DNA of 39,445 bases from contig ONTV01000031.1 in the NCBI GenBank assembly GCA_900320855.1, forward strand, positions 1 to 39,445. Reading direction: 5' to 3'. Source of the stretch: an uncultured Lentisphaerota bacterium (lineage in GTDB: Bacteria > Verrucomicrobiota > Kiritimatiellia > RFP12 > UBA1067). A program made the position numbers and the translations under genes. Position 1 is the first letter of the stretch; each line of letters opens with the position of its first letter. The notes beneath the pieces were generated by a model that did not search any database, was not told where the DNA came from, and saw nothing but the letters and a program-made list of their open reading frames with translations. This document shows, in pieces, positions 15,968-39,445 of the stretch.

Positions 15968-16531
15968 ATGAAGCTTCGCCTTTTCCTTTCGTTTTCCGCC
16001 TGCATGGCTCTGCGGCTGTTGGCCGCCGAGTCCTTGCTGTCGGCGATGGATGCGGGCGAGGCAGCTCCCGCGAAGCCGGCGGCGACGCGCCTGGCGCGCA
16101 TCACGTCCGACTCGACGTACTACGACCGCAAGGAGGGGATGGCCGTCTTCACGGGGCATGTCCACGTCGACGACGAGCAGTACCAGATGCATGCGGACAA
16201 GGCGTACGTCTTCATGACGACGACGAATACGCTGAAGCGCATCGTCGCGATCGGGAACGTCGCGCTGACGAACGAGATGAAGCGCGCCTACGGGACGAAG
16301 GCGTCGTACTACAAGGGAAGCGGCATGGTCGTCCTCTATGGCGGCGACGGCCAGAATGCGGAGATCGTTGATGCGTCGAAGGGCCAGAACCAGACGCTGC
16401 GCGGCACGAAGATCAAGTTCTGGATCGACTCCGAGCAGGCGGAGGTCCTCGATGCGACGATCGTTGCGCCGGTTTCGGGCGGTGGCTCGACGGGGCTGGG
16501 CGACGTCATTCGCGGGGGGCTGGGGCGCTGA
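15968..16531 (+). CDS. LptA/OstA-family beta-jellyroll periplasmic protein
   Basis: Signal peptide; ITSDSTYYD, AVFTGHVHV, MHADK, IVAIGNV, LRGTKIKF pattern. Confidence 0.75.
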   Translation: MKLRLFLSFSACMALRLLAAESLLSAMDAGEAAPAKPAATRLARITSDSTYYDRKEGMAVFTGHVHVDDEQYQMHADKAYVFMTTTNTLKRIVAIGNVALTNEMKRAYGTKASYYKGSGMVVLYGGDGQNAEIVDASKGQNQTLRGTKIKFWIDSEQAEVLDATIVAPVSGGGSTGLGDVIRGGLGR

Positions 16532-18056: not shown

Positions 18057-18145
18057 ACGCACAATACGGGCAGGTGCGCTTTGGCGCTGGTCTGGCGGCG
18101 GGTGCCGCCGGGACGCGGAGCGGCACGGCCACCGGGACTAGACAG

Positions 18146-19837
18146 ATGGATCAGATACTGCAGCTTCTCGTTCAGAACGGGTACATCGACGAGGCCGGCG
18201 CGAAGGACCTCCAGGACCTCGCGAAGACCGAGTCGAAGACGACGCGCCAGCTCGTCATCGACCAGGGCATCCTCGACGAGGATTCGCTCCTCGCCGCGAT
18301 GGCCGCCTACCAGGACACGGAGGCGATCGACCTCGGCGCGATGACGATCGACACCGAGGTGACGGAGGCGATCCCCGCCTCGACGGCGCGCATGTACAAC
18401 GTCTTCCCCGTCGCGGCGGACGAGTCGTCCGTCACGCTCGCGACGTTCGACCTCGTCGATCCGCGCATCTCCGACGAGATGCTCTTCACGCTTTCGAAGG
18501 AGGTTCGGTTCGTCTTCGCCCGCGAGAAGGACGTGATGGACCGCATCGCCCAGTACTACGGCGACGCGAACGCCTCGGTGGCCGACATGATCAAGTCGCT
18601 CGGCGAGGGCATGAGCGACGACGAGACGCTGGCGGCGGGCGCGAACGCGAACGACATCGCCTCGATGGAGTCGGCGGCGAACTCGAACGCGATCATCAAG
18701 TTCGTGAACCTCGTCCTCTACCAGGGCGTCGTCGACCACGCCGCCGACATCCACATCGAGCCGTTCGAGGACGACTTCAAGATCCGCTACCGCGTCGACG
18801 GCGCGCTCTACGCGATGAAGGCGCCGGACGTGAAGATGGCCCCGGCGATCATCTCGCGCGTGAAGATCCTCGCGGGCCTCAACATCGCCGAGCGCCGCGT
18901 GCCGCAGGACGGCCGCATCGCGCTCACGGTCGCGGGCCGTCCGGTCGACCTGCGCGTCTCGTGCCTGCCGACGGCGCACGGCGAGTCGGTCGTCATGCGA
19001 ATCCTCGACCAGACGACGACGTCGCTCGACCTCGAGAACGTCGGTCTCCCCGAGGACGTCTACGAGCAGATCACGATGGACATCGAGAAGCCGAACGGCA
19101 TCTTCATCGTGACCGGCCCGACCGGCTCGGGCAAGACGACGACGCTCTACTCCGTCCTCCGCCGCATCAACCAGATCGACACGAAGCTCCTGACGGCCGA
19201 GGAGCCGGTCGAGTACAACGTGGACGGCATCGTGCAGGTGCCGATCGACGCGCGCGCGGGCAACACGTTCGCGAAGGTGCTGCGCGCGTTCCTCCGCCAG
19301 GACCCGGACGTGATGATGATCGGCGAGATCCGCGACCTCGAGACGGCCGAGATCGCCGTTCAGGCGGCGCTGACGGGCCACTTCGTCTTCTCGACGCTGC
19401 ACACGAACGACGCGGCGGGCGCGGTGATGCGACTGGTGGACATGAACGTCGCGCCTTACCTCCTCTCCTCGACGCTGGAGGGCGTCCTCGGCCAGCGACT
19501 CGTCCGCACGTGCTGCAAGGAGTGCAAGCAGCCGTATGAGCCGGACGACGACACGCTTGAGCGCATCGAGATGACGCGCGACCAGATCGGCGGGCGTCCG
19601 TTCTACTACGGCAAGGGCTGCAAGACGTGCAACGGCACGGGCTACAAGGGCCGCAAGGGCGTCTTCGAGTATCTGCGGATGTCGAACCCGCTCCGCGAGC
19701 TCGTGAACAACAAGGCGCCGACCCTGATCATCCGCGAGAAGGCGCGCGAGCTGGGCATGCGCACGATGCGCGAAGACGGCATCCGCTCGATCCTCGACGG
19801 CTACACGACGGTCGACGAAGTCCTGCGCTACACGTGA
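18146..19837 (+). CDS. GspE/PilB-family secretion/pilus assembly ATPase
   Basis: ADIHIEP, PQDGRI, GPTGSGKTTTLY, LRQDPDVMMIGEIRD, STLHTNDA, tetra-Cys zinc motif. Confidence 0.92.
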   Translation: MDQILQLLVQNGYIDEAGAKDLQDLAKTESKTTRQLVIDQGILDEDSLLAAMAAYQDTEAIDLGAMTIDTEVTEAIPASTARMYNVFPVAADESSVTLATFDLVDPRISDEMLFTLSKEVRFVFAREKDVMDRIAQYYGDANASVADMIKSLGEGMSDDETLAAGANANDIASMESAANSNAIIKFVNLVLYQGVVDHAADIHIEPFEDDFKIRYRVDGALYAMKAPDVKMAPAIISRVKILAGLNIAERRVPQDGRIALTVAGRPVDLRVSCLPTAHGESVVMRILDQTTTSLDLENVGLPEDVYEQITMDIEKPNGIFIVTGPTGSGKTTTLYSVLRRINQIDTKLLTAEEPVEYNVDGIVQVPIDARAGNTFAKVLRAFLRQDPDVMMIGEIRDLETAEIAVQAALTGHFVFSTLHTNDAAGAVMRLVDMNVAPYLLSSTLEGVLGQRLVRTCCKECKQPYEPDDDTLERIEMTRDQIGGRPFYYGKGCKTCNGTGYKGRKGVFEYLRMSNPLRELVNNKAPTLIIREKARELGMRTMREDGIRSILDGYTTVDEVLRYT

Positions 19838-26020: not shown

Positions 26021-26943
26021 CGTCATTTGAACTGAACGAGGCGATTGCGGACGGCACGATCGCGGAGCTGATCCGCGTCGCCGAGGCGCGGCAGGTGAAG
26101 GCGCTCTCGAAGATCGCCGACATCGTGTGCGGGCGGGCGGGCATCCGGCTCATCCTCGTCGCGGGAGGCTCGGCCGCCGGCAAGACGACGACAGCGACGC
26201 GGCTCTGCACGCAGATCCGCGTGAACGGCCGCGCGGCGTACCATCTCTCGACGGACGACTATTTCGTCGGCGACGCGCGCAATCCGCGCGACGCGAACGG
26301 CGAGCTCGACTACGAGCACGTCGACTGCGTGGACATCCCGGCGCTTGCGGCGGACGTGAACGCGCTCCTGCGGGGCGAGACGGTCGGCGTGCGCAAGTTC
26401 GACTTCGTGCATCATGTGCCGCTCGCGCCCGTGCGCACGGTCTCGCTGCCGAAGGGCGGGTTCGTCGTCCTCGAAGGCATCCACGCGCTCAATCCGCGCC
26501 TCACGCAGGGAATCCCCGACGCGACGAAGTACCGTGTCCTCGTCGAGCCGCGTCCGAGCCTCGACGTCTTCGGCGGCATCGTCCCGAAGCCGAGCGAGGC
26601 GCGCTTTCTGCGGCGGCTCGTGCGCGACAACCAGTTCCGCAAGATGAGCCCGTCCGTGACGGTGCGGCTCTGGCCGAAGGTGCTGGCGGGCGAGGAGAAG
26701 TGGATTCGCCCGTTCTGCGGCAACGCCGACCTGACGTTCGACTCCTATCTCGTCTACGAGCTGGCGGTGCTCAAGCCCTATGCGGGCGGGCTCCTGGAGC
26801 GGGCGCGCCGCGAGCTGGGCGACGTGCGCGAAGTCACGAACATGATCCGGCTCCTTTCCGCCGTCGAATCGACGGGCTCGGCCTACGTGCCGGGCGACTC
26901 GATCATCCGCGAGACGATCGGCGGCAGCCAGCTCGAATACTGA
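26017..26943 (+). CDS. nucleoside (uridine-kinase-like) P-loop kinase
   Basis: AGGSAAGKTT, STDDYF, EGIHALNP, RRLVRD, SIIRETIGGS. Confidence 0.8.
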   Translation: MTSFELNEAIADGTIAELIRVAEARQVKALSKIADIVCGRAGIRLILVAGGSAAGKTTTATRLCTQIRVNGRAAYHLSTDDYFVGDARNPRDANGELDYEHVDCVDIPALAADVNALLRGETVGVRKFDFVHHVPLAPVRTVSLPKGGFVVLEGIHALNPRLTQGIPDATKYRVLVEPRPSLDVFGGIVPKPSEARFLRRLVRDNQFRKMSPSVTVRLWPKVLAGEEKWIRPFCGNADLTFDSYLVYELAVLKPYAGGLLERARRELGDVREVTNMIRLLSAVESTGSAYVPGDSIIRETIGGSQLEY

Positions 26944-26945
26944 AG

Positions 26946-28364
26946 ATGGCGACGGTCGGAACGGAAGGGGTTGCGGGGAAAGCGGCGGGGACGGCCTTGC
27001 GGGGCGGACGGAGCCGCTTTCGCCTGGGGCGGACGCTCCGCAACGTGTTCACGGTCGGCGGGCTGACGGCGGCGAGCCGCGTCCTCGGCCTTGTGCGCGA
27101 GATGCTGCAGTCGCGCCTCATCGGGGCTGGGGTCGAGCAGAGCGCGTTCACGCTGGCGTTCGCCTTGCCGAACATGGCGCGCAAGCTCTTCGGCGAGGGC
27201 GCGCTCACGGCGGCGTTCGTGCCGGTCTTCAAGGGCGAAGTCGCGGCGGGCGAAGTCGAGTCGGCGCGCCGTCTCGCCCGTGCCGTCCTCACGCTCGTCT
27301 TCCTCATTCTCGGCGCGGTCGTCGCCCTTGCGCTCGTCGGCCTCACGGTCGCGCTCGGCCTTTCGGCGGCGGATGTCGTGTCCCTCTCGCCGCGCGCCGT
27401 CCTCACGCTGAAGCTCGTGCGCATCCTCTTCCCCTACATGATCTTCATCTGCGGGGCGGCGTTCGGCATGGGCGTCCTCAACGCGCTCGGCCGATTCGTC
27501 GAGGGCGCGTTCATGCCAGCGTTCCTGAACGTGGTGTGGATCGCCGCGCTGGGGCTTCTCTGCTTCTTTCCGGGGCTGTCGCTCGCTGCGCGCGTGACGG
27601 TCGTCGGCTGGGCGATTCTCGCGGGCGGCGTCGCGCAGATGGCGTTCCTCTTCCGGTGCATGCGCCGGCGCGGCTACGGGTTCCGGTTCGCGCCGTTCGC
27701 GTCGTTCCGCGACGAGAAGTTCCGGCTCGTCTGGCGCAACACGCTCCTCGGCGCGGTGGGGGCGGGCGCCGTGCAGGCCAACTACCTGCTCGACCAGGTT
27801 CTCGGACAGGTCGCGGCGCCGTGGGCGGCGGGCGTCATCGGCTACGCGGAGCGCCTCATGGACTTGCCGCTCGGCGTCGTCGGCGTCGCGTTCGGCACGG
27901 TGCTGCTGCCGACGTTCGCGGGGCACTTCGCGGCGGGCGACGCGGCGGGCGCGCGGCGGGCCCTGAAGCGCGCCGTCCTGCAGATGACGGCGGTCATGCT
28001 GCCGGCGTCGGTCGTGACGTTCTTCTGCGCGCCGCTCATCGTGCGGCTCGTCTACGAGGGCCACGCCTTCGACGCGACGGCGACGCTGCGCGTCGCGCGG
28101 GCGCTCTCCGTCTACGGGCTCGGCCTTTGCTTCTTCGCGATCCAGAAATGCCTCGCCCCGTTCTTCCAGGCGCAGAAGGACATGAAGACGCCGCTGCGCG
28201 TGACCGTCCAGACGGTCTGCCTCAACGCGACGCTGAACGTCCTCGCGATCGCGCTTTTGCCGATGGACTGGCGGCACGTGGGGCTGGCGGCCTCGACGTC
28301 GTTCTGCGCGCTCGTCGGTTGCGTGCTGCTGGCGCGGCGCCTTCGCGTCCCGTCGGACGGGTGA
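26946..28364 (+). CDS. murJ: lipid II flippase MurJ (short C-terminus)
   Basis: SRVLGLVRE, AFALPNMARKLFGEGAL, YAERLMDLPLGVVG, FFQAQKDMKTP. Confidence 0.88.
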   Translation: MATVGTEGVAGKAAGTALRGGRSRFRLGRTLRNVFTVGGLTAASRVLGLVREMLQSRLIGAGVEQSAFTLAFALPNMARKLFGEGALTAAFVPVFKGEVAAGEVESARRLARAVLTLVFLILGAVVALALVGLTVALGLSAADVVSLSPRAVLTLKLVRILFPYMIFICGAAFGMGVLNALGRFVEGAFMPAFLNVVWIAALGLLCFFPGLSLAARVTVVGWAILAGGVAQMAFLFRCMRRRGYGFRFAPFASFRDEKFRLVWRNTLLGAVGAGAVQANYLLDQVLGQVAAPWAAGVIGYAERLMDLPLGVVGVAFGTVLLPTFAGHFAAGDAAGARRALKRAVLQMTAVMLPASVVTFFCAPLIVRLVYEGHAFDATATLRVARALSVYGLGLCFFAIQKCLAPFFQAQKDMKTPLRVTVQTVCLNATLNVLAIALLPMDWRHVGLAASTSFCALVGCVLLARRLRVPSDG

Positions 28365-28618: not shown

Positions 28619-30479
28619 CCTCCCCCTCTCGGCCGCCCTCTCTCTCTTCGTCTTCGCGCTCGCCGCCCCCGCCAACGCCGCGCCGTCCGCGCCGCTGACG
28701 ACGCCGTGGGGCGAGAAGGTGACGGACGCGAACGCCTGGCGGGAGTACCCGCGCCCGCAGCTCGTGCGCGACGGCTGGACATGCCTGAACGGCGACTGGG
28801 ACTACGCCGTGACGAGCGTCACGAACACGCCGGGGCGCCCGGAGAAATGGGACGGGAAGATCCGCGTGCCGTTCGCGATCGAGTCCGCGCTCTCCGGCGT
28901 CGGGCGGCTCCTCGGGCCGGACGAGTTCCTCTGGTACACGCGCAAGGTCGACTGCCGGAAGCGGCCCGGCGAGCGCATCCTCCTGCACTTCGGCGCGGTC
29001 GACTTCCGCGCGCAGGTCTTCGTCGGCCACCGCGAGGTGACGGACGTGCCGCACGAGGGCGGGAACCTGCCGTTCACGCTCGACGTCACGGACTACGTCG
29101 CGGACGGTGAGAACGAGCTGACGGTCTGCGCGTGGGACCCGACGGAGGACTTCGTCAACTCGCGCGGCAAGCAGAGCTTCGAGCCGAAGGGGTGCTTCTA
29201 CACGCGCGTGTCGGGGATCTGGCAGACGGTGTGGATGGAGAACGTGCCCGAGACGCACGTGGCGGGCTACGCGGTGGCGACGGACATCGACAAGGGCACG
29301 GTCACGCTGCGCTTCGACGTGCGCAGCCCGCGCTTCGCGAAGCCGGAGGTGACGGTCGAGGTCGCCGGGGTGAAGGCGACGACGGCGAACGGCGAGGTGA
29401 CGGTCACGCTGCCGAGACCCGTCCGGCTCTGGAGCCCGGACTCGCCGGAGCTCTACCGCTTCACGGCGGCCTGCGGGGCGGACTCGGTGAGGGGCTACTT
29501 CGGGATGCGCAAAATCGAGAAACGCGCGGACGCGAAGGGCGTGCTGCGGTTCTACCTCAACGACGAGCCGACGTTCCTCCTCGGGACGCTCGACCAGGGG
29601 TGGTGGCCGGACGGGCTCCTGACGCCGCCGTCGGACGAGGCGATGGCGCACGACATCCGGACGCTGAAGGACTGCGGGTACAACATGATGCGCAAGCACA
29701 TCAAGGTCGAGCCGCTGCGGTACTACTATCTGTGCGACACGCTGGGGATCCTCGTCGTCCAGGACCTGCCGAGCGGCAACCACAGCTACCTGTCGCCGCT
29801 GGACGCGAAGACGACGGCGAGGTACTGGCTTCAGCGGCAGGAGCAGAAGGGGCTCATGGACCTTCTGCAGACGTCGCCGTCGGTCGTGATGTGGTGCCCG
29901 TACAACGAGGCCTGGACGCAGCCGGGCGAGTTCCAGACGCACGCGATGCTCGACTTCGTGCGGAACTACGACCCGACGCGGCTCGTGAACGGGCCGAGCG
30001 GCTGCTGGGACTGGGAAGGCGGGTGCATCCTGCCGACGGGGTGGGTCGCGTGGGACAAGCGCATCACGACGGCGCACAAGCCGGCGGGAGTCTGCGAGGC
30101 GGGGGATACGGTTGACGCGCACCTCTATCGCGGGCCGGCGATGTTCCCCGTCAACGACCGGCGCATCTCGTTCCTCGGCGAGTTCGGCGGCCTCGGGCAT
30201 TCCGTCGAGGGCCATCTCTGGAAGAAGACGGCGAAGAACTGGGGCTATGGCGGCAACAAGGACACCGCGACGCGCGAGGGGCTCGAGAAGACGTACGTCG
30301 CGCTCCTCGAAAAGGTCGCGGACCTGGCGGCGCAGGGCCTCGGCGGCGCGGTCTACACGCAGACGACGGACGTGGAGGTCGAGATCAACGGCCTCATGAC
30401 CTATGACCGAAAGGTGATGAAGTTCGATCCGAAGGCCCTTCGCGCCGTGCATCGGAAGGTCCTGGACGCCGTGCGCTGA
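28497..30479 (+). CDS. secreted glycoside hydrolase family 2 protein
   Basis: EYPRPQLVR, LHFGAVD, SGIWQTVWME, LDQGWWPDG, RKHIKVEP, YNE acid/base, GEFGG nucleophile, YTQTTDVEVEINGL. Confidence 0.9.
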   Translation: MEVQLFSLQRAIRPLSLVFCRLSSPVSRLASSRFSRLLSRALPLSAALSLFVFALAAPANAAPSAPLTTPWGEKVTDANAWREYPRPQLVRDGWTCLNGDWDYAVTSVTNTPGRPEKWDGKIRVPFAIESALSGVGRLLGPDEFLWYTRKVDCRKRPGERILLHFGAVDFRAQVFVGHREVTDVPHEGGNLPFTLDVTDYVADGENELTVCAWDPTEDFVNSRGKQSFEPKGCFYTRVSGIWQTVWMENVPETHVAGYAVATDIDKGTVTLRFDVRSPRFAKPEVTVEVAGVKATTANGEVTVTLPRPVRLWSPDSPELYRFTAACGADSVRGYFGMRKIEKRADAKGVLRFYLNDEPTFLLGTLDQGWWPDGLLTPPSDEAMAHDIRTLKDCGYNMMRKHIKVEPLRYYYLCDTLGILVVQDLPSGNHSYLSPLDAKTTARYWLQRQEQKGLMDLLQTSPSVVMWCPYNEAWTQPGEFQTHAMLDFVRNYDPTRLVNGPSGCWDWEGGCILPTGWVAWDKRITTAHKPAGVCEAGDTVDAHLYRGPAMFPVNDRRISFLGEFGGLGHSVEGHLWKKTAKNWGYGGNKDTATREGLEKTYVALLEKVADLAAQGLGGAVYTQTTDVEVEINGLMTYDRKVMKFDPKALRAVHRKVLDAVR

Positions 30480-30503
30480 CGGACGTGCGCCGCCACGAGA
30501 CAC

Positions 30504-30533
30504 TTGCATTCGACGAGCAGATTGTAGTATAAT
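30504..30533 (+). promoter_or_regulatory. promoter of TPR-exbBDD operon
   Basis: TTGCAT, 18-nt spacer, TATAAT, ending 9 nt before ATG 30543. Confidence 0.65.
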
Positions 30534-30542
30534 CGCACCATC

Positions 30543-33500
30543 ATGAGACGAGAGGCTTTTTCAATTGTCGCGTTGGCGGCGCTTGCGGCGTCGCCGCTCT
30601 TCGCCGAGGAGGCGGCCGCGCCGGCGGCTGCGGCCCCGAATGAGAACCCCGAGCTTGAGGCCGAGATGAGCTATGTCGAGGCGCTCGTCAACTACGGGTA
30701 TCCCGACCTCGCGGGGCCGCTCATCGAGGCGACGAAGAAGCGGTGGCCCGAGTCCGAGGCGCGCTTCTTCGCGATCGAGATTCGCGGCATGCTCGCGCTC
30801 GGCCAGTTCGACGCGGCGGAGAAGAAGATCGCCTCGCTGCCCGACCGCAAGTCGACGAAGTACTGGGCGGCGCGCCTTGAGATGGCGAACAACTACTTCG
30901 GCCGTGGGCAGAAGCCCGAGTGCATGAAGATCTACGACGAGTTCTTCAAGGTCTTTGCGAAGCCGCCGGCCGAGATCCGCAAGTTCTACCTGGAGGCGTG
31001 CTACGCCTACGGCCAGCTGCTCGCGGGCGACAAGCAGTACGCGAAGGCCGTGCAGCGCTACGAGTCGCTTCTCGCGCAGCTGGAGCCGGGCAGCGACGCC
31101 TGGTGCAACCTCGGCTGCGAGACGGTCGATCTCTATCTGCGCCTGGCGGACCAGCAGACGGATCCGAAGCAGAAGAAGGCGCGCGACGCGAGCCTGAAGG
31201 CGGCCGAGAAGATCGTCGACAAGCTCCTCTGGCAGCTTGAGAAGCCCGTCTACTTCGGGCGCGCGGTCTCGATGAAAGCCCATATCGAGCAGATGAAGGG
31301 CGACATCGAGAAGGCCTCGGCCATCATCGAGGAGTACAAGCCGCAGCTGCAGGAGATCCATGAGCAGATCGTCCAGTTCGACCCGGAGGGCAAGCTGGGC
31401 CTGCTGAAGCAGTCGCCGCTCCCGGAGTGCCTGTTCCTCCAGGCGAAGATGCTGTGGGGCGAGGCGCAGGCCGAGTACAAGAAGCCGAAGCGCGATGACG
31501 AGAAGGTGAAGTCCCTCATGTTCGGCCCGCGCGGCAAGAACGGCAAGCGCCAGATCTCGAAGGGCGCGTTCGCGATGGCGCAGACGGTCTTCCTCGAATA
31601 CGAGGCGTCCTCGTGGGCGCCGCAGGCGGGCGACCTCGCGCAGGCCGTGAGCACGTTCGCGAAGGAGAAGTACAAGGCGAACATCAAGTGCAAGATTACG
31701 CCCGAGCAGATCGCGAAGGCGCGCGCGCGCCAGTTTGCGGACGCGAACGAGAAGTTCCTCGCGCAGGACTACGAGGCCGCGATCGAGGGCTATCTGCAGG
31801 CGCTTGCGAAGTATCCGGAGATCAAGGAGTCCGTGATGGCCGTCGAGAACGTCGCCTCGGCCTACCTGGATCTCATCCTCCAGACGAAGGACGCGAAGAA
31901 GAAAGACGAATACCGGCTGGACGCCGATGCGGTCGAGGGCTATCTCGCCGAGCGTTTCGCGGGGTCGACGGACCGGCTTCTCATGACGGCCGGCGGCGAC
32001 GCGACGGTCCGTCTCGCGGCGAAGGAGTCGCAGTACAAGAATCCGGCGCGCGCCGACCGCCTCTACACGGCGTTCTTCACGAACTACCGGCGTCATGCGA
32101 ACGCGGGCACGCTGGCGGCCGCGCGGGCGGCGGAGTTCCAGAAGGCCGGGCGGTATGACGACGCGATCAAGTACTGGTCGCTGATCGGCGAGTACTACAC
32201 GAACACGACGCACTACGCGACGTCGCTCGCCCAGCTCGCGGCCTGCTGCGGCAAGGTCGGCGACGTGAAGGGCGAGATCGCGAACATGACCAAGTACCTC
32301 GCGGTCGAGACGGTGAAGATCCGCCGCCTCCAGGCCCAGTTCAAGCTGGCGCAGACCTACCAGAAGGATGGCCTCGCGATGCTGGCCAAGGCCGCCGAGG
32401 AGACGGACGCCGCCAAGGTCGAGGCGCTGGAGAAGGAGGGAACTGCGCAGATTGTCCGCGCGATCCAGAACTTCTCGGGCTTCAAGAAGGAGGCGGACGC
32501 GGCGCTCGCCGACCCGACGACGACGAAGGAGGACGCCGCGAGCTACCGCAAGCTGCGCGAGGGCGCGATGTTCATGGTCGGCGTCTGCTGGCGGCGCATG
32601 AACCGTCCGGAGCAGAACCTCGAGGCCTACCGCAAGCGCGCGGCGGCCGGGTACGAGGCCTACGTGAAGGAATATCCCGAAGGGCAGTACGCGAAGCCCT
32701 GCTACGTAGACCTCGGGACGATCTACACGGCGCTCGGCGACATGGCGAAGTCGAAGGCGGCGCTGGACCGCCTGACGGAGAAGTTCCCCGATTCCGACGA
32801 GGCGAAGAACGCGAAGCCGCGCCTGGCGAAGAACCTCATCGAAATGGGCATGAAGCGCGAGGGCGCCGAGATCTACGCCGAGATGCTGCGGACGGACGGC
32901 GCGTACACGGCGAACCAGTTCGTCCAGGCGGGCGAGGCCCTGATTGAGGGCAAAAGCTGGGATCTTGCGAGCCAGGCGTTCGAGAAGGCGATTCGGCTCG
33001 CGGGCACGAATTCGGCGACGACCGTCGCGAAGGCGCGGCTCGGCCTCGCGAAGAGCGCGTGGAAGCAGGGCTCGCTTGCCGAGGCGCGCGACCAGCTCGA
33101 CAAGTTCCTCGAAGACCCGAAGATGTCGCGCATGGCGATTGCCGCCGACGCGAACTTCATGCTCGTCGAGGTCGCGTCCGACCAGGGCCGCACGGAGAAG
33201 GACGCGACGATGCGTGGCAAGTGCTTTGGCGCGGCGATTGGCGCGCTCAAGAAGGTGCGCCAGTACTGGGCGAAGAAGCCGCAGTGGGAGCAGGACCAGC
33301 TCGACCTCCTCTCCGGCGACGTGCTCGTCGATCGCATGAAGGCCGAGGAGGCGATGGGCCTCAAGGAAGAGGCGAAGGAGACGTGCGGGCGCGCGGCCGC
33401 GACCTTCCAGGTCTTCCTCCAGGCGCATGGCGTGACGGACGAGCATCCGCTCGACAAGATGGAGCCGGGCGAGGTCGCGAACCTCGAGCGCGCCTATGCG

Positions 33501-33659
33501 ACGCTCGTGCCGCTCTTTGCGAAGATGGGCGCCACGCAGGCCGACCTTGTCGTGAAGTTCGGGCAGGAGTATCTCGACCTCTTCCCGAACGGCAAGGCGC
33601 GGACGCTTGTCCAGAACTGCATGAACCAGGCCAAGGCGGATCTGCCGGCCCAGAAGTGA
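30543..33659 (+). CDS. large exported TPR/alpha-solenoid protein (1038 aa)
   Basis: Sec signal peptide (ending PLFA); repeated helical TPR-like units with YP/FP turns (YVKEYPEG, LTEKFPDS, YLDLFPNG). Confidence 0.8.
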   Translation: MRREAFSIVALAALAASPLFAEEAAAPAAAAPNENPELEAEMSYVEALVNYGYPDLAGPLIEATKKRWPESEARFFAIEIRGMLALGQFDAAEKKIASLPDRKSTKYWAARLEMANNYFGRGQKPECMKIYDEFFKVFAKPPAEIRKFYLEACYAYGQLLAGDKQYAKAVQRYESLLAQLEPGSDAWCNLGCETVDLYLRLADQQTDPKQKKARDASLKAAEKIVDKLLWQLEKPVYFGRAVSMKAHIEQMKGDIEKASAIIEEYKPQLQEIHEQIVQFDPEGKLGLLKQSPLPECLFLQAKMLWGEAQAEYKKPKRDDEKVKSLMFGPRGKNGKRQISKGAFAMAQTVFLEYEASSWAPQAGDLAQAVSTFAKEKYKANIKCKITPEQIAKARARQFADANEKFLAQDYEAAIEGYLQALAKYPEIKESVMAVENVASAYLDLILQTKDAKKKDEYRLDADAVEGYLAERFAGSTDRLLMTAGGDATVRLAAKESQYKNPARADRLYTAFFTNYRRHANAGTLAAARAAEFQKAGRYDDAIKYWSLIGEYYTNTTHYATSLAQLAACCGKVGDVKGEIANMTKYLAVETVKIRRLQAQFKLAQTYQKDGLAMLAKAAEETDAAKVEALEKEGTAQIVRAIQNFSGFKKEADAALADPTTTKEDAASYRKLREGAMFMVGVCWRRMNRPEQNLEAYRKRAAAGYEAYVKEYPEGQYAKPCYVDLGTIYTALGDMAKSKAALDRLTEKFPDSDEAKNAKPRLAKNLIEMGMKREGAEIYAEMLRTDGAYTANQFVQAGEALIEGKSWDLASQAFEKAIRLAGTNSATTVAKARLGLAKSAWKQGSLAEARDQLDKFLEDPKMSRMAIAADANFMLVEVASDQGRTEKDATMRGKCFGAAIGALKKVRQYWAKKPQWEQDQLDLLSGDVLVDRMKAEEAMGLKEEAKETCGRAAATFQVFLQAHGVTDEHPLDKMEPGEVANLERAYATLVPLFAKMGATQADLVVKFGQEYLDLFPNGKARTLVQNCMNQAKADLPAQK

Positions 33660-33680
33660 TGATTTGAGAAAGGCAACGGA

Positions 33681-34451
33681 ATGAACAAACTGACGATCAT
33701 GAGTCTGGCGGCCCTTGCGGCGGCGGAGGTCTTCGCCGTGCAGGGTACGCTCAACACCGAAACCGAGTCCCTGACGGGCGACATCAAGTGGCGCGCGCGC
33801 GACAAGCAGTACGTCGTCTCCGTGAAGAAGGGGCAGACGATGGTTGACATGGAGCGCAAGAAAGACGACGTCGTCTCGCTCGACATCCCGAAGCCGCAGG
33901 GCTTCGACAAGGCCGTGCAAATGGTCGAAAGCGGGTCGGGCGCGGCGGCGATCGCGATCCTGCAGAAGATCGTCGACGAGTACGTGATGCTTCAGTGGGA
34001 CAAGCCGGCCGGGCGCTATCTCGCGATGGCGCAGCTCGCGGCGGGGCATGCCCAGAAGGCCAATGACATCTGCACGAAGATCATCGCGTCCGACAAGGAG
34101 GCGGCCTATTCGGGCGATCTCGCGGCGGCCTACTGGCAGTCGCTCCTGAAGCTCGGCAAGAACGACCAGCTGGAGAGCCTCCTGAAGAAGGCCGCGACGT
34201 CCGGCGACCGCACGGCGTCCGCCGCCGCGCTCGTCATGCGCGGCGACATCATCGTCGCGAAGTCGAACGATGCGCCCGACGCGCTCAAGGACGCGTTGCG
34301 CGACGGTTACCTGCGCGTTGTCCTCATGTACCAGGACGAGGCGTGCAAGCGCGAGCGCGGCGAGGCGATGCTCAAGGCCGCGCAGTGCTTCGACAAGCTC
34401 GGCCAGTCCGCGCGCGCCGAGGCTCTCCGCGCCCAGGCGAAGGCGATGTGA
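33681..34451 (+). CDS. exported protein with C-terminal TPR-like helices
   Basis: Signal peptide; ALRDGYLRVVLMY...AMLKAAQCFDKLG. Confidence 0.75.
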   Translation: MNKLTIMSLAALAAAEVFAVQGTLNTETESLTGDIKWRARDKQYVVSVKKGQTMVDMERKKDDVVSLDIPKPQGFDKAVQMVESGSGAAAIAILQKIVDEYVMLQWDKPAGRYLAMAQLAAGHAQKANDICTKIIASDKEAAYSGDLAAAYWQSLLKLGKNDQLESLLKKAATSGDRTASAAALVMRGDIIVAKSNDAPDALKDALRDGYLRVVLMYQDEACKRERGEAMLKAAQCFDKLGQSARAEALRAQAKAM

Positions 34452-34456
34452 GGTGA

Positions 34457-34506
34457 GGGAAATAATCGAATGGTCGAATGATCGAATGAACGGTCGAATG
34501 GCCGAA
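34457..34506 (+). repeat. second ATCGAATG-family octamer array
   Basis: 34457-34489 is identical to 3845-3877 (33 bp). Confidence 0.9.
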
Positions 34507-34536
34507 ACTCTTTAAACCCAAAAACAAGATAAAACA

Positions 34537-35361
34537 ATGAACAAGATCAAGAAGTCTCTGCTGGCGATGTCGATTCTCGTTGGAACGTGCGTCGCGCCAA
34601 TGGCCGCGCTCCAGTCGTATGGCCAGGAAATCACCGATGCCGCCGGCAACGCGGTTGACACCAACGCGGCGAAGTCCCAGAGCTCGGGCGGCGGATTCTA
34701 CGAGATCGTCTTCGGTTCGGGCATCGTCGGCATGATCCTGTGGTTTGCGCTCTTCGGCGACGGCGCGCTCGCGATCTACTTCGCCCTTGACTCCGCGATC
34801 CTCATCAAGCCGGACAAACTCATGCCGAAGAAGCTCATGGACGGTGTGCAGGGCGCGATGATGGAGGGCGACGTCGTCAAGGCGATGGAGGTCTGCGACC
34901 AGAACCCGTCCGCGATGGCGTCGATCGTCAAGGCGGCCTTCCAGCACATCGAGGAGGGCTTCGAGGCGATTCAGGAGGCCGTGACGGCGGCGTCCGACCT
35001 CGAGCAGGAGAAGATCCAGCAGCGGCTGAACTGGATTTCGGTCTGCGGCAACCTCGGCCCGTCCCTCGGCCTTCTCGGTACGGTGCAAGGCATGATCCTG
35101 ACGTTCCAGGCGCTCGCCTCCGGCGGCGCCGGCGATGCGGCCGCGCTCGCGAACTCGATCGGCCAGGCTCTCTGGACGACGGCCGGCGGCCTGATCGTGT
35201 CGATCCCCTCGATCACCATCTTCTACTCGCTCCGCAACAAGGCCAACCGCCTCATCCTGAAGATGACCGCGATGACGATGGAGATCCTGAACGGCCTCCG
35301 CAATGTCGCCGTCGATCCGGGCGCCGAGGGCGACGCTCCGGCGGAAGCGGCCCAGGCGTAA
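34537..35361 (+). CDS. exbB: MotA/TolQ/ExbB proton channel protein
   Basis: GPSLGLLGTVQGMI and ALWTTAGGL TM signatures; extra signal-like N-terminus. Confidence 0.9.
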   Translation: MNKIKKSLLAMSILVGTCVAPMAALQSYGQEITDAAGNAVDTNAAKSQSSGGGFYEIVFGSGIVGMILWFALFGDGALAIYFALDSAILIKPDKLMPKKLMDGVQGAMMEGDVVKAMEVCDQNPSAMASIVKAAFQHIEEGFEAIQEAVTAASDLEQEKIQQRLNWISVCGNLGPSLGLLGTVQGMILTFQALASGGAGDAAALANSIGQALWTTAGGLIVSIPSITIFYSLRNKANRLILKMTAMTMEILNGLRNVAVDPGAEGDAPAEAAQA

Positions 35362-35379
35362 GCGAAAGGCCCTCGTTCC

Positions 35380-35880
35380 ATGGCCAGGAAAGCACAGGAG
35401 AATCCGGCCCTCGACATGACGCCGATGATCGACGTCGTCTTCGAGCTGATCATCTTCTTCGTCGTCACGCTGACCGAAGCGCAGCGCAAGGACGAGACGA
35501 TCGAGCTCGAAGACGGTCGGCACGGCATCGTGCTCGTTCCAGAGGAGTTGCCGCCGACGCATCTGCAGATTGACATCGCGAGCCGCGACAAGCGCGGCAA
35601 GCGTCTGCCGCGCGGTCGCATCTCGATGGGCGACCGCGAGATTACGCCGGACGAGATCGGCCGCCGCGTCAAGGAGCGGATGCGCAAGGTCGGGGAGTTT
35701 CCCGTCCTCATCCGTGCCGACTACGACGTGCGCCACGAGGTCGTCGCGCGCGTCATGGACGCCTGCACGGCGAACGGCATCTGGAAGATCTCGTTCATGG
35801 CGACGGCAGAGGACAAGCGCTCGAAGCCGGGGCATCCCGCCCGCAAGCATCTGGACGCGCTCAAGAGAAGGGGGAGGTAA
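35380..35880 (+). CDS. exbD: ExbD/TolR family protein 1
   Basis: LDMTPMIDVVF, VLIRAD, VMDAC. Confidence 0.9.
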   Translation: MARKAQENPALDMTPMIDVVFELIIFFVVTLTEAQRKDETIELEDGRHGIVLVPEELPPTHLQIDIASRDKRGKRLPRGRISMGDREITPDEIGRRVKERMRKVGEFPVLIRADYDVRHEVVARVMDACTANGIWKISFMATAEDKRSKPGHPARKHLDALKRRGR

Positions 35881-35883
35881 GCC

Positions 35884-36294
35884 ATGGCGCGCAAGCCACA
35901 GGAGAATCCCGCGCTCGACATGACGCCGATGATTGACGTCGTCTTCGAGCTGATCATCTTCTTCGTCGTCACGATCAAGCAGGAGGACACGCTTTCGAAG
36001 CTGAACGCGAACCGTCCCGCGCCCGCGTCCGGGTCATCGTCTTCAAACGAGTCCGACACGACCGTGACAATCGAGATCGGGCGGGGACACGACGCGAACG
36101 GCGTCCTCGTCTACAACAAGCGCGAGGTGCGGCGGTCGGAGCTCGACCAGAACCTGCGCGAGGTCGCCCGCACGTCGACGAAGACCCCCATCATCATCAA
36201 GTGCACGATGGATTCGCCGCACAAGGCGCTTGTCGATGCGCTTGACATCTGCTACAAGAACAACCTGTTCAGCGTCAGCATCTTCTCGATGTGA
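35884..36294 (+). CDS. exbD: ExbD/TolR family protein 2
   Basis: LDMTPMIDVVF, PIIIK, LVDALDIC. Confidence 0.85.
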   Translation: MARKPQENPALDMTPMIDVVFELIIFFVVTIKQEDTLSKLNANRPAPASGSSSSNESDTTVTIEIGRGHDANGVLVYNKREVRRSELDQNLREVARTSTKTPIIIKCTMDSPHKALVDALDICYKNNLFSVSIFSM

Positions 36295-36305
36295 GACGGG
36301 TGGGC

Positions 36306-36372
36306 GTAGGGAAGTTTGGATGTCTGGGCGTTTGGATGTTTGGAAGTCCTGAAAGTTTTGGAGGTTTAGGGC
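36306..36372 (+). repeat. GTTTGGAN 8/9-mer array abutting a start codon
   Basis: gtagggaa gtttggat gtctgggc gtttggat gtttggaa gtcctgaaa gttttggag gtttagggc ATG. Confidence 0.85.
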
Positions 36373-38112
36373 ATGGCTGAAGAGTTTGTCGAAGACGAGT
36401 TGCAGGAGGCCCCGCTGAGCGCGGAGGAACTCTTCGAGCAGCACAAGGCCGAGATTGAGGCGGCATTCGAGGAGAAGGGCTTTTTCCGCCGCATGGCGGA
36501 TATGTTGACGGGTCTCTCGAAGCCGCATTCATCTGCCGAGTTCAAGATCGCGAAGACGGAGCTCCAGCGGCTCATCGCCCCGATCGCGGCGATTACGCTG
36601 CCGGTCCTGGGCGTCGCCGTCCTCATTGTCGTGACGGCCGTCCAGGGACAGATGGACAAGAAGATCGAGGTCGAGGTCGCTCGTGCCCAGGAGGAGGAGA
36701 CCGAGCTCGAGGAGGAGCAGGAACAGGAGGAGATCGTCGAGCAGACGCCGCCCGAGGAGATGGTCGACGTCACGATCGACACGCCGGACGTCACCCCCGT
36801 GGCGGATGTCGTCACGCCGAGCGCGACGCCGACGGCCGAGCCGGTTTCCGTGAAGCCGGCCGCGCAGGATTCCGTCGCCCTCATCAAGTCGCCCGTCACG
36901 ATGAAGTCGATGACGGGTTCGCGGACGCCCGGCTCCATCGGCGCCATGACGCGGGGCGGCAATATGTACGGCGATGCGACGACGGAGGGTGCCGTCCTCA
37001 AGGCCCTGCGGTGGCTCAAGAAGACGCAGCTGCCGAACGGGACCTGGGGCAATGGCGGCAACCCGATCTCGAACGCGGGGCTGGCGATTCTCGCGTTCCT
37101 GGCCCATGGCGAGACGCCGGCCTCGAAGGAGTTCGGACCGACTGTCCAGAAGGCGATGCAGTTCCTGATCGATTCGCTGACGAAGAGGAAGGACAAGACC
37201 GGGCAGGAGGTCGTTTCCTTCAAGGAGACGGACGGCAACGAGTACGCGACGCTGATCGCGACCTACGCCCTTTGCGAAGCCTATGGCATGACGCGCAACC
37301 CGAACACGAAGATCGTGGCCATGCAGACCCTGCAGCGCATCGTCGACAACCAGTCGCCGACGGGCGGCTGGGACTACGGCATGAACCGCAAGTCGACGCG
37401 TGACGACATGTCATACGCGGGCTGGGCGCTTCAGGCGCTGAAGGCCGGCAAGATGGCGGGCATGCACCCAAAGGGGCTGGACGCCTGCATCAAGAAGGCA
37501 ATCAAGTGCCTGAAGACGCGCAACTTCAAGAACGGCGGCTTCAACTACACGGCGGGCGGCGGCCCGACGGGCCTGACGGCGACGGGCTGCCTTGCGATGC
37601 AGCTCCTCGGTTACATGAACGAGAACGAGGTGAAGGCCGCGCTCGACACGATGCGCGCGTGGAAGCCGTCGTTCGAGGGCACGAAGGGGAAGAAGCTCTC
37701 GGAGGCCCTGCCGGCGGCCAATCCCCAGTACTACTGCTACTACGCCGCGCAGTGCAAGTACCAGGCCGGCATGTGCCAGGGCGCAACGCCCGCGAACGTG
37801 AAGGCCTGGCAGGACTGGAACCTCGCGATGAAGGCCCTCTATCCACGCACGATGATCACGCTCCCCGAGAAGATTCCGGGGCTGGACGGCAAGCCGCGCG
37901 CAATCGGGTACTGGAAGTTCAAGGACCAGACGTGCGGCGGCGAGAAGGCGACGACGATGGCGACGTGCCTGGCGGCGCTGCAGATGATGGTTTACTACCG
38001 CTACCTGCCGACCACGCAGACAAAGGCCGCGAAGGCCATCACGTCGGGTGACGAGGACGAAGGCTCGAAGAAGAAGCAGAGCGACGAACTCGACATCGAG
38101 GTAGATATTTGA
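36373..38112 (+). CDS. single-TM protein with acidic/Pro-rich linker and prenyltransferase/squalene-cyclase QW-repeat alpha/alpha barrel
   Basis: TM IAAITLPVLGVAVLIVVTAV; linker EEETELEEEQEQEE...TPPEE; QW-like repeats ALRWLKKTQLPNGTW, IVDNQSPTGGWDY, LKTRNFKNGGFNY. Confidence 0.8.
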   Translation: MAEEFVEDELQEAPLSAEELFEQHKAEIEAAFEEKGFFRRMADMLTGLSKPHSSAEFKIAKTELQRLIAPIAAITLPVLGVAVLIVVTAVQGQMDKKIEVEVARAQEEETELEEEQEQEEIVEQTPPEEMVDVTIDTPDVTPVADVVTPSATPTAEPVSVKPAAQDSVALIKSPVTMKSMTGSRTPGSIGAMTRGGNMYGDATTEGAVLKALRWLKKTQLPNGTWGNGGNPISNAGLAILAFLAHGETPASKEFGPTVQKAMQFLIDSLTKRKDKTGQEVVSFKETDGNEYATLIATYALCEAYGMTRNPNTKIVAMQTLQRIVDNQSPTGGWDYGMNRKSTRDDMSYAGWALQALKAGKMAGMHPKGLDACIKKAIKCLKTRNFKNGGFNYTAGGGPTGLTATGCLAMQLLGYMNENEVKAALDTMRAWKPSFEGTKGKKLSEALPAANPQYYCYYAAQCKYQAGMCQGATPANVKAWQDWNLAMKALYPRTMITLPEKIPGLDGKPRAIGYWKFKDQTCGGEKATTMATCLAALQMMVYYRYLPTTQTKAAKAITSGDEDEGSKKKQSDELDIEVDI

Positions 38113-38244
38113 GTGGGGAAGTGGGAGAGTGGAACAGTGGGAAAGTGGAATGGTGGGAATGTGGGGAAGTGGGAGAGTGGGAATGTGAGAAAGTGGGAGA
38201 GTGGGAGGAAGAGGAGCGAGGCGGGAAAGTGGAAAGGTTTAAAG
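38113..38244 (+). repeat. GTGGGANN octamer array
   Basis: 12 consecutive units at 38113-38208 plus 3 at 38221-38244, starting directly after a stop codon. Confidence 0.92.
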
Positions 38245-38296
38245 ACAGCGGAAGGTTGGCGGAATGTGACGGACGGGTGTGAGTTGTCCGATGAAC

Positions 38297-38386
38297 ATCT
38301 GAGATCTGGAATTTGAGATCCGGAATGAACAGTTGAGGCTTGCCACGAGCATTTGAAATCTGAGATTTGAGATTTGAAATCTTGAA
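38297..38386 (+). repeat. two ATYTGAR heptamer arrays
   Basis: atctgag atctgga atttgag atccgga (38297-38324); atttgaa atctgag atttgag atttgaa atcttgaa (38351-38386). Confidence 0.85.
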
Positions 38387-39445
38387 ATTTCCTCTTTTCC
38401 TAGCTCTTAAATACCTTAAGCCGAAGCGATCCGTCGCTTCGGTCATCACGCTTGTCTCCATCTTGGGCGTGATGCTGGGCGTCGCGGTCGTCATCATCGT
38501 CCGCAGCGTCATGACGGGCTTCGGCGACATCTGGGAGGAGAAGATCCTCGACTTCAAGCCGCACGTCTCGCTCGTGCCGCAAGTTGGCAACGTCGTTCGC
38601 GGCGAAGAGGCCCTCGCGGCGAAGCTCCGCCAGATCCCGGGCGTGACGTGCGTGACGCCCGAAATCGACACGCGCGTTCTCCTTGCGCACAAGGGGCGTG
38701 TCCTCGCGCCGGTCATCCTCGGCGTGGACGGCGACGACTTCACGCGCGCCTACCGCATCGGCGCGCCGCGTGCCGGCACGTTTGACCTTTCGGGCGACTC
38801 GATCGTCCTCGGCGTCTCGGCGGCGCGGTCGCTCGGCGTCTGGGTGGGCGACGAGGTGACGGTCTACTCGCCGAAGACGCTCGTCGCGACGGACGAGGTG
38901 TTCCTGCCGGTCAAGTGGAGGGTCGTCGGCATCTTCTCCTGCGGACAGCACGAGTACGATTCCGGCTACGTCGTCGCATCGCTCCCGAATGTCCGCGACT
39001 TGATGGGAATGGAGCAGGGCGTCTTCGCGATCCACGTCAAGACGGACTGCCCGACGGACGCGGCGAAGTTCGAGCGGATCGTCTCGGCGGCCGTCGCCGT
39101 CGGCGACGGGAACGGCGCGCGGCTGCGCGCGATCTCCTGGCGGGAGGCCGACCGCGAGATCTTCAACGCGCTGGCCGTCGAGAAGAACATGACGGCGCTG
39201 CTCCTCTCGCTCATCTCGCTCGTCGCCGTCTTCTGCGTCATGAACACGCTGCTTGTGCTGACCGTGCAGAAGACGCCGGAGATCGGGCTCCTGAAGGCGC
39301 TGGGCTTCCGCAAGCGCGAGATCATGAAGGTCTTCCTCGTCCACGGCATGATCCAGTGCGGCGTCGGCATCGTCCTCGGATTGCTGGCCTCGTGGGCCGT
39401 TCTGTCGAACCTCCAGAACATCGTCGAGGGACTGGCGCGAATGGG
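38382..39445 (+). CDS. LolC/LolE-type ABC transporter permease (runs off window end; absent from ORF track)
   Basis: TTG start: MKFPLFLALKYLKPKRSVASVITLVSILGVMLGVAVVIIVRSVMTGF...EKNM...VQKTPEIGLLKALG. Confidence 0.88.
   Translation, partial: MKFPLFLALKYLKPKRSVASVITLVSILGVMLGVAVVIIVRSVMTGFGDIWEEKILDFKPHVSLVPQVGNVVRGEEALAAKLRQIPGVTCVTPEIDTRVLLAHKGRVLAPVILGVDGDDFTRAYRIGAPRAGTFDLSGDSIVLGVSAARSLGVWVGDEVTVYSPKTLVATDEVFLPVKWRVVGIFSCGQHEYDSGYVVASLPNVRDLMGMEQGVFAIHVKTDCPTDAAKFERIVSAAVAVGDGNGARLRAISWREADREIFNALAVEKNMTALLLSLISLVAVFCVMNTLLVLTVQKTPEIGLLKALGFRKREIMKVFLVHGMIQCGVGIVLGLLASWAVLSNLQNIVEGLARM

Follow-up and report, generated by a model that had tools for sequence, protein, structure and literature searches.

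What kind of machine is encoded where a proton-driven motor shares a gene cluster with a protein that ends in a cyclase-like barrel? The question is raised by contig ONTV01000031.1 of assembly GCA_900320855.1, from an uncultured Lentisphaerota bacterium (a gut member of the Kiritimatiellae), and by the stretch of 39,445 nucleotides analysed here as a whole (the window; G+C content 64-72%). An initial annotation of this DNA had claimed a co-directional six-gene cluster at 30543..38112, and six open reading frames (ORFs) on the + strand occupy exactly these coordinates, separated in order by 21, 85, 18, 3, and 78 nucleotides. They encode two exported tetratricopeptide repeat (TPR) proteins, an ExbB/TolQ-type stator subunit, two ExbD/TolR paralogues (ExbD1 and ExbD2), and a 579-residue protein with a toroid of paired helices (Table 1). 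The Ton and Tol systems have long been the main known carriers of energy from inner membrane to outer envelope in Gram-negative bacteria. On the evidence set out below, the operon probably encodes a further machine of the Ton/Tol kind that is powered by the proton motive force (PMF), in which an ExbB ring with ExbD1 and ExbD2 would drive a TonB-derived arm bearing a toroid head, together with two periplasmic TPR partners.

The head and its anchor are best considered first, as they set this operon apart. An AlphaFold2 model of the 579-residue protein, built on 108 relatives (mean predicted local distance difference test score, pLDDT, 81.1), places cytoplasmic helices at residues 17-48, a transmembrane (TM) helix at 55-90, disorder at 100-181, and the toroid at 186-545. 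The TonB-like topology attributed to the last gene is therefore reproduced in the model, with the N-terminus inside, one TM helix, and a disordered acidic and proline-rich linker of some 80 residues. The squalene-cyclase-type alpha/alpha barrel foreseen for its C-terminal part likewise finds structural support: VIA-align pairs the modelled toroid with the squalene-hopene cyclase 1gsz at Z 25.1 (root-mean-square deviation 3.2 A over 296 residues) and with 8paj at Z 24.3, the latter also being the best Foldseek match (E-value 1e-5). Effectively tied with the 1gsz match, at Z 22-24, are sugar epimerases, mannanases of glycoside hydrolase family 76 (GH76), and similar enzymes; complement thioester domains score around Z 18-19. 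Sequence models of cyclases remain below their cut-offs (SQHop_cyclase_C PF13243, 19.6 against 26.1 bits; TIGR01787, 26.3 against 322.7; TIGR01507, 16 against 431.1), and Pfam returns no vWA match in this protein. A reading of the conserved H-G-E motif as that of a thioester domain (CGEQ-like) was dropped, as all that spoke for it was the fold match to the C3 thioester domain (Z 18.9) and a presumed placement of the motif.

Does the anchor of this protein resemble those that are known to dock on ExbB-ExbD motors? The TM helix of TonB, TolA, and vWA transducers carries an S-x3-H motif, according to PMC12204202. The initial annotation had cautioned that this motif is missing here, and so it is, with A73 and P77 standing in the columns of the serine and the histidine. 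Across the 108 aligned relatives, these columns read S/H in 38, A/H in 6, A/P in 40, and G/P in 3 sequences, and the helix is preceded by a near-invariant proline (99/108). The window protein belongs to the A-x3-P group; both this group and the S-x3-H group are found inside the conserved operon. As S-x3-H occupies these columns in 38 of the 108, the N-terminus of the toroid-protein family looks TonB/TolA-derived, and the caveat over the missing motif is softened accordingly. Eight residues after the TM helix lies a conserved alternating stretch (I/V-E-V-x-V-x-E, residues 98-104), with isoleucine or valine at 98 in 79 of the 108 sequences, glutamate at 99 in 64, valine at 100 in 68, and glutamate at 104 in 65. 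A beta-strand 'motor box' is placed just after the TM helix in PMC12204202, and residues 97-104 are, by position and pattern, a candidate for such a box. A predicted complex of ExbD1, ExbD2, and residues 50-200 of the toroid protein scored 0.00 against a mark of 0.32, a value which, obtained without controls, is uninformative either way.

The motor itself is readily recognized. The stator subunit matches PF01618 (MotA/TolQ/ExbB) at 90.7 bits against a cut-off of 22.9, over profile positions 4-125 of 127, and falls below the NCBIfam equivalog cut-offs of both TolQ (TIGR02796, 67.1 against 221) and ExbB (TIGR02797, 36.2 against 206.2). Both ExbD paralogues pass PF02472 (77.1 and 76.1 bits against 25.4), and in alignments their TM residue Asp18 is invariant, in 32/32 orthologues of paralogue 1 and 33/33 of paralogue 2. 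The equivalent aspartate of ExbD/TolR is the proton-binding residue, as described in PMC12204202. The 1038-residue protein, whose orthologues are the first gene in the conserved order, matches TPR_14 (48.3 bits against 23.5) among other Pfam TPR families, and is not a lipoprotein, because its signal peptide lacks a cysteine. The 256-residue protein, conserved as the second gene, has a weak Pfam match to TPR_6, and in its AlphaFold2 model (pLDDT 94.4) the signal peptide is followed by a beta domain of five strands (residues 20-68) and by TPR helices (75-255); its best structural match, the TPR protein 2pl2 (Z 14.5), is generic for TPR folds. As the initial annotation had it, TonB, TolA, TolB, Pal, and TonB-dependent receptors are absent from the cluster, the six proteins giving no such match in Pfam or NCBIfam.

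How far does this arrangement extend beyond one contig? A search at E-value 1e-10 through 301 genomes across the phylum recovered relatives of the toroid protein in 125 genomes and in 74/149 genera, including 12/12 members sampled from the family in which the window falls. Among 1.84 billion cluster representatives this very large and unnamed family numbers 18,634, 12,370, and 6,256 at E-values of 1e-3, 1e-10, and 1e-30, respectively. For synteny, we took about 19 kb around 40 hits from the genome sample, and 78 loci from public contigs (72 after removal of six duplicates). Every ORF was then scored against profiles derived from the 40-locus set. The toroid gene lies directly after exbD in 25 of the 40 sampled loci (26 with L045, by its phmmer row), and in 44 of the 72 public loci, with the full chain TPR-(TPR)-ExbB-ExbD-ExbD-toroid in 23 and 38, respectively; as loci were chosen by toroid match, these counts express how often the toroid gene lies in the operon, and not the reverse. 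Judged by record titles, linked loci belong to Kiritimatiellae/Kiritimatiellia, Lentisphaerae/Victivallales, Opitutia, Spartobacteria, and unclassified Verrucomicrobia, the closest being gut Kiritimatiellae. Linkage of toroid and TPR genes with exbBD, on which the initial annotation had staked its proposal, is conserved across classes of the phylum. The protein's C-terminus also varies with this linkage. An acidic tail pattern, written for this analysis, matches 76/108 family members and is found in 58/67 operon-linked copies versus 17/40 unlinked copies, a comparison between non-independent relatives in which contig ends truncate some of the unlinked loci. In chaperone systems, EEVD tails dock in TPR grooves; by analogy, and speculatively, the acidic tail might dock in a groove of a TPR partner.

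Is such a machine new? The initial annotation had called it undescribed, which may hold for the head and fails for the layout. Williams-Jones et al. (2025, Mol Biol Evol, PMC12204202) describe transducers that have a TM helix followed by a disordered linker and end in a vWA domain, and that are encoded in the same operon layout in the Planctomycetes-Verrucomicrobia-Chlamydiae (PVC) group; their function is given as unknown, with gliding suggested, the class is reported to have the TM histidine, and the seed genus is Tichowtungia. The order of TPR gene, tolQ-like gene, two heterologous tolR-like genes, and transducer is shared by the window and its relatives. The bacterial group is shared too, and we take Tichowtungia to be a member of the Kiritimatiellae. 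The window differs in its (alpha/alpha)6 toroid head, its TM helix without histidine, and its additional small TPR gene. The main text of PMC12204202 contains no occurrence of toroid, cyclase, terpen, or prenyl, and of the papers listed by a full-text literature search for a toroid-plus-ExbD protein, none concerns such a protein. The toroid-headed operon is, then, a variant of the machine type that was first reported in 2025, with another head on the chassis of the vWA class. With TonB and TolA the toroid protein has in common that it is bitopic and N-in, with a single TM helix beside an ExbB/TolQ and ExbD/TolR motor, a long disordered linker, and, in the 38 relatives counted above, S-x3-H; it differs in that its operon has two ExbD paralogues instead of one, and that its C-terminus is not a TonB_C or TolA domain. 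The toroid operon is further distinguished from Tol-Pal by the lack of tolB and pal. Squalene-hopene cyclases, prenyltransferases, and thioester proteins share the six-hairpin (alpha/alpha)6 fold and QW-type repeats, whereas the window protein is a single, periplasmic toroid on a TonB-like N-terminal anchor.

Variation within the family suggests that heads may be exchangeable on a common base. Tandem toroid genes (L057:8633-15625, L061:8915-12661, L051:6826-11857, and L081:6303-11232) are mosaics. The three copies at L057 are 100% identical in the N-terminus and TM helix and 99-100% identical in the linker, with toroids at 57-78% identity, and one pair at L051 shows the reverse, with linkers at 47% and toroids at 92%. 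This pattern suggests gene conversion or recombination between tandem copies, and would fit several heads sharing one motor or docking module. In another genome of the same class (G173, L183:3209-9692), a related small TPR protein, an ExbB, and a pair of ExbD subunits are followed by a 532-residue protein with an N-terminal TM helix, a proline- and glycine-rich linker, and a DUF4159 domain, and then by a 606-residue FG-GAP protein. This order suggests that heads may be interchangeable, with DUF4159 as a putative third type on the same layout.

From these features we infer how the parts would couple and transmit force. The stator ring would be formed by ExbB, and ExbD1 and ExbD2 would pair as a heterodimeric plug presenting the proton-binding aspartates. 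The 579-residue protein would dock on this motor by its N-terminal TM helix and the short, conserved, putative strand behind it, both apparently TonB/TolA-derived, such that proton flow would pull the disordered linker and exert force on whatever the toroid head holds. The two exported, co-inherited TPR proteins would most likely constitute the scaffold or adaptor that the head acts on in the periplasm. If the coupling holds, the repertoire of force-driven periplasmic machines grows, many 'terpene cyclase/mutase family protein' labels are wrong (one public source applies this label to a member of the family), and a phylum poor in TonB-dependent receptors gains a testable candidate for energized uptake or for work on the envelope.

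Several observations weigh against this account of a coupled, force-transducing arm. Docking on the motor is hypothetical in the window's own clade, since the TM helix of the window protein has alanine and proline in place of the motif, and the monomer model shows no strand at the post-TM stretch. Pfam and NCBIfam detect neither a TonB_C nor a TolA C-terminal domain in the 579-residue protein. The confirmed fold of the model singles out no activity or ligand, because the best matches barely outscore sugar epimerases and GH76 enzymes. Linkage was counted in one direction, as stated above, and about a third of loci with at least 7.5 kb of upstream sequence (13/35 and 15/45) are unlinked to a motor. 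Genus g60 has three tandem toroid genes without an acidic tail and with no motor nearby. Conversely, a TPR-TPR-ExbB-ExbD-ExbD series in another genome of the same class (G032, L184:250-7528) is followed by mutL, and this genome (about 96% complete) gave no toroid protein at E-value 1e-10 with the window query.

Might the motor serve some other partner encoded in the same genome? The 2.4-Mb assembly (G000; 87% complete), in which the toroid protein is single-copy, has five MotA/ExbB loci. These include an ExbB-ExbD-TonB cluster with a canonical TonB_C domain, and an ExbB-ExbD pair followed by a 307-residue TolA-like protein (TIGR02794, E-value 3.5e-10; tonB_Cterm, 29.8 against 27.1 bits). The canonical partners envisaged as an alternative by the initial annotation are thus present, but each adjoins its own ExbB-ExbD, which makes them unlikely, by this inference, to be partners of the toroid operon's motor. 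As the genome has its own TonB and TolA-like clusters, the toroid operon is best seen as an additional system and no stand-in for Ton or Tol. A TolB-like propeller (C105, 167.9 against 343.15 bits) and a Pal-like lipoprotein (C48, 110.3 against 125.35) are both below cut-off, and two weak matches to TonB-dependent receptors were recorded. Two further ExbB loci adjoin large TPR genes (683 and 731 residues): at C46, TPR-ExbB-ExbD precedes a 149-residue proline-rich protein without a family match, and at C178, a short contig, ExbB adjoins the 731-residue TPR protein. A vWA or toroid partner was sought at both, and a 300-residue ORF at C46 looks like a wrong-frame artefact. The ExbB match at C144 carries one in-frame TAG (C46, C178, C79, and C144 are loci L010-L013).

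Other explanations accept these parts and assign them a different job, or dissolve the connection between them. It is possible, and we say so tentatively, that the same motor and arm are devoted to envelope upkeep, in a Tol-Pal-like role or in lipoprotein or outer-membrane handling, with the toroid and TPR scaffold acting on the outer membrane or peptidoglycan in growth and division. The presence of the toroid protein throughout the sampled family and in about half of the genera, its single copy in a small genome, and the MurJ and LptA-like genes of the window would suit a housekeeping part, for which tandem copies with diverging heads would be unusual. Within the 1038-residue protein there are weak NCBIfam matches to the TPR families BamD (34.8 against 81.4 bits) and YbgF/CpoB (33.5 against 90.1), which lie far below cut-off. 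A lolC/E gene was offered in the initial annotation as a hint at envelope trafficking, and it does stand directly downstream, here and in close relatives (in the window the LolC/E ORF, TIGR02212, E-value 1.1e-61, begins 254 nucleotides 3' of the cluster and is cut by the window end), but the adjacency is confined to those relatives. Moreover, the genome already possesses the TolQ/TolR/TolA-like cluster and, below cut-off, the TolB-like and Pal-like proteins described above. A gliding or adhesion machine, of the sort suggested for vWA-headed relatives and found in the Myxococcus Agl-Glt system, in which the toroid would be an adhesive or track-binding head, strikes us as very unlikely. As the initial annotation noted of the AglRQS-Glt motor, one ExbB-like and two ExbD-like genes with TPR proteins appear to resemble its layout, and 10 kb upstream the window encodes a type II/IV secretion ATPase. 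Gliding was also suggested for the vWA-headed class by Williams-Jones et al. (PMC12204202). Against this, Agl/Glt-specific NCBIfam models give no match to the six proteins at E-value 0.01, Pfam and NCBIfam reveal no other Glt-like genes in the operon, and assembled DNA is all that is known of the host, a gut bacterium with a small genome.

We consider it improbable that the 579-residue protein is a membrane-anchored periplasmic six-hairpin enzyme or binding protein, co-transcribed with the motor and uncoupled from it, with a TonB/TolA-like protein elsewhere or the TPR proteins as the actual partner. The TM helix of the window protein without the serine and histidine, the many sugar epimerases, glycoside hydrolases, and cyclases among toroid relatives, the third of family members found away from any motor, and the canonical TonB and TolA-like protein of this genome would all speak for this reading. 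Yet S-x3-H recurs in more than a third of relatives together with the conserved post-TM stretch, toroid genes directly follow exbD across classes, a long disordered linker is what transducers typically have, both TonB and the TolA-like gene have an ExbB-ExbD pair of their own alongside, and the cyclase family models are well below cut-off. A PMF-driven machine with a TonB-derived arm remains the reading we prefer, and for its target, the capture of large ligands (glycans, for instance) or their import is a possibility that we slightly favor over envelope maintenance, itself held with some reserve. Kiritimatiellae, Lentisphaerae, and Opitutae have few TonB-dependent receptors. The lean toward large-ligand uptake is due to the diversifying tandem heads, this glycan-degrading lineage with few such receptors, and a nearby gene for a glycoside hydrolase of family 2 (GH2); the toroid family is found among Verrucomicrobiota of the gut and the environment that break down complex glycans.

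A more ambitious synthesis may be ventured, which as a whole we regard as doubtful. TPR proteins, ExbB, and ExbD1/ExbD2 could constitute a modular PVC chassis for toroid, vWA, and DUF4159 heads, which would be attached via a shared TonB-like N-terminal module; the toroid version with its 1038-residue solenoid could be a third PMF-powered envelope machine beside Ton and Tol, and perhaps the missing energized step of glycan uptake in Kiritimatiellae, Lentisphaerae, and Opitutae, with the acidic tail possibly docked in the TPR groove.

A locus in a genome of genus g60 (G078, L093:5368-11626) offers a further comparison. There, ExbB-ExbD-ExbD is followed by a 1.1-kb gap without a convincing ORF, a 1101-residue exported TPR protein, and three proteins without a family match. 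Motor and giant TPR protein are a theme shared with the window, whereas the gene order, the gap, and the lack of a toroid gene are different. Passages of PMC12418764, PMC13174399, and PMC12997984 report a need for MUL (mucin utilization locus) genes in mucin import by Akkermansia, and Amuc_0546 is listed among 'biopolymer' transporters in a passage of PMC11480725. We liken the g60 locus to Akkermansia MUL1 as no more than an analogy. Mul1A (Amuc_0544) is presumably a TPR protein. Searched against the g60 locus with phmmer, the window's TPR proteins gave nothing at E-value <1. With hhalign, the giant TPR proteins of the two loci align at a probability of 95% over 159 columns, a generic and off-register TPR match, and the small window TPR protein reaches a probability of 3% against the g60 locus.

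Table 1. Features of the six-gene operon, in window coordinates
Feature	Coordinates	Strand	Basis
Exported TPR protein, 1038 aa	30543..33659	+	Pfam TPR families over cut-off
Exported 256-aa protein, small beta domain then TPR domain	33681..34451	+	AlphaFold2 model
ExbB/TolQ-type stator subunit, 274 aa	34537..35361	+	PF01618
ExbD/TolR paralogue 1, 166 aa	35380..35880	+	PF02472
ExbD/TolR paralogue 2, 136 aa	35884..36294	+	PF02472
Candidate force transducer with toroid, 579 aa	36373..38112	+	Structure model, fold matches, family, synteny
TM helix, residues 55-90 (A73, P77)	36535..36642	+	pLDDT ~90 or more
Conserved alternating stretch KIEVEVAR, residues 97-104	36661..36684	+	Column counts, 108 sequences
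Disordered acidic, Pro/Thr/Val-rich linker, residues 100-181	36670..36915	+	pLDDT <50 at 100-125 and 127-181; composition
(alpha/alpha)6 toroid, QW-type repeats, residues 186-545	36928..38007	+	Fold matches
Acidic C-terminal tail, alternating hydrophobic end (...DELDIEVDI)	38065..38109	+	Tail pattern

Is the operon transcribed, and as a unit? The single promoter proposed in the initial annotation was not recovered, as a sigma-70 scan of 30000-39445 returned no sites, and a simple scan of the same interval found no terminator on the + strand; such scanning may be ill-suited to this organism. Nearly identical contigs found in the RNA libraries of four animal-gut studies cover 26-28 of 30 operon bins, with DNA carry-over possible, and we attach no meaning to the few bins left uncovered in some runs. 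Single contigs from these libraries cross the TPR/TPR, ExbB/ExbD1, ExbD1/ExbD2, and ExbD2/toroid junctions, contigs from which neither strand nor a single transcript can be read. Together, these data lend weak support to expression of the operon.

Upstream of the cluster, Pfam identifies the GH2 glycosidase and MurJ genes referred to above. The MurJ ORF (26127-28364, 745 residues) has its MurJ domain beginning only near residue 304-330, which would be explained by a long N-terminal extension or else by a first listed start codon that is too early. The LptA-like protein (LptD_N, E-value 2.3e-12) is encoded at 15968-16531, and the type II/IV secretion ATPase (T2SSE, E-value 5e-129) at 18074-19837, among several upstream ORFs without a family match. 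Within the toroid family, six strong profile matches (P0133, P0217, P0246, P0261, P0266, and P0269) are much longer, at 937-1729 residues, with the toroid at the C-terminal end, and represent family members in fused or extended form.

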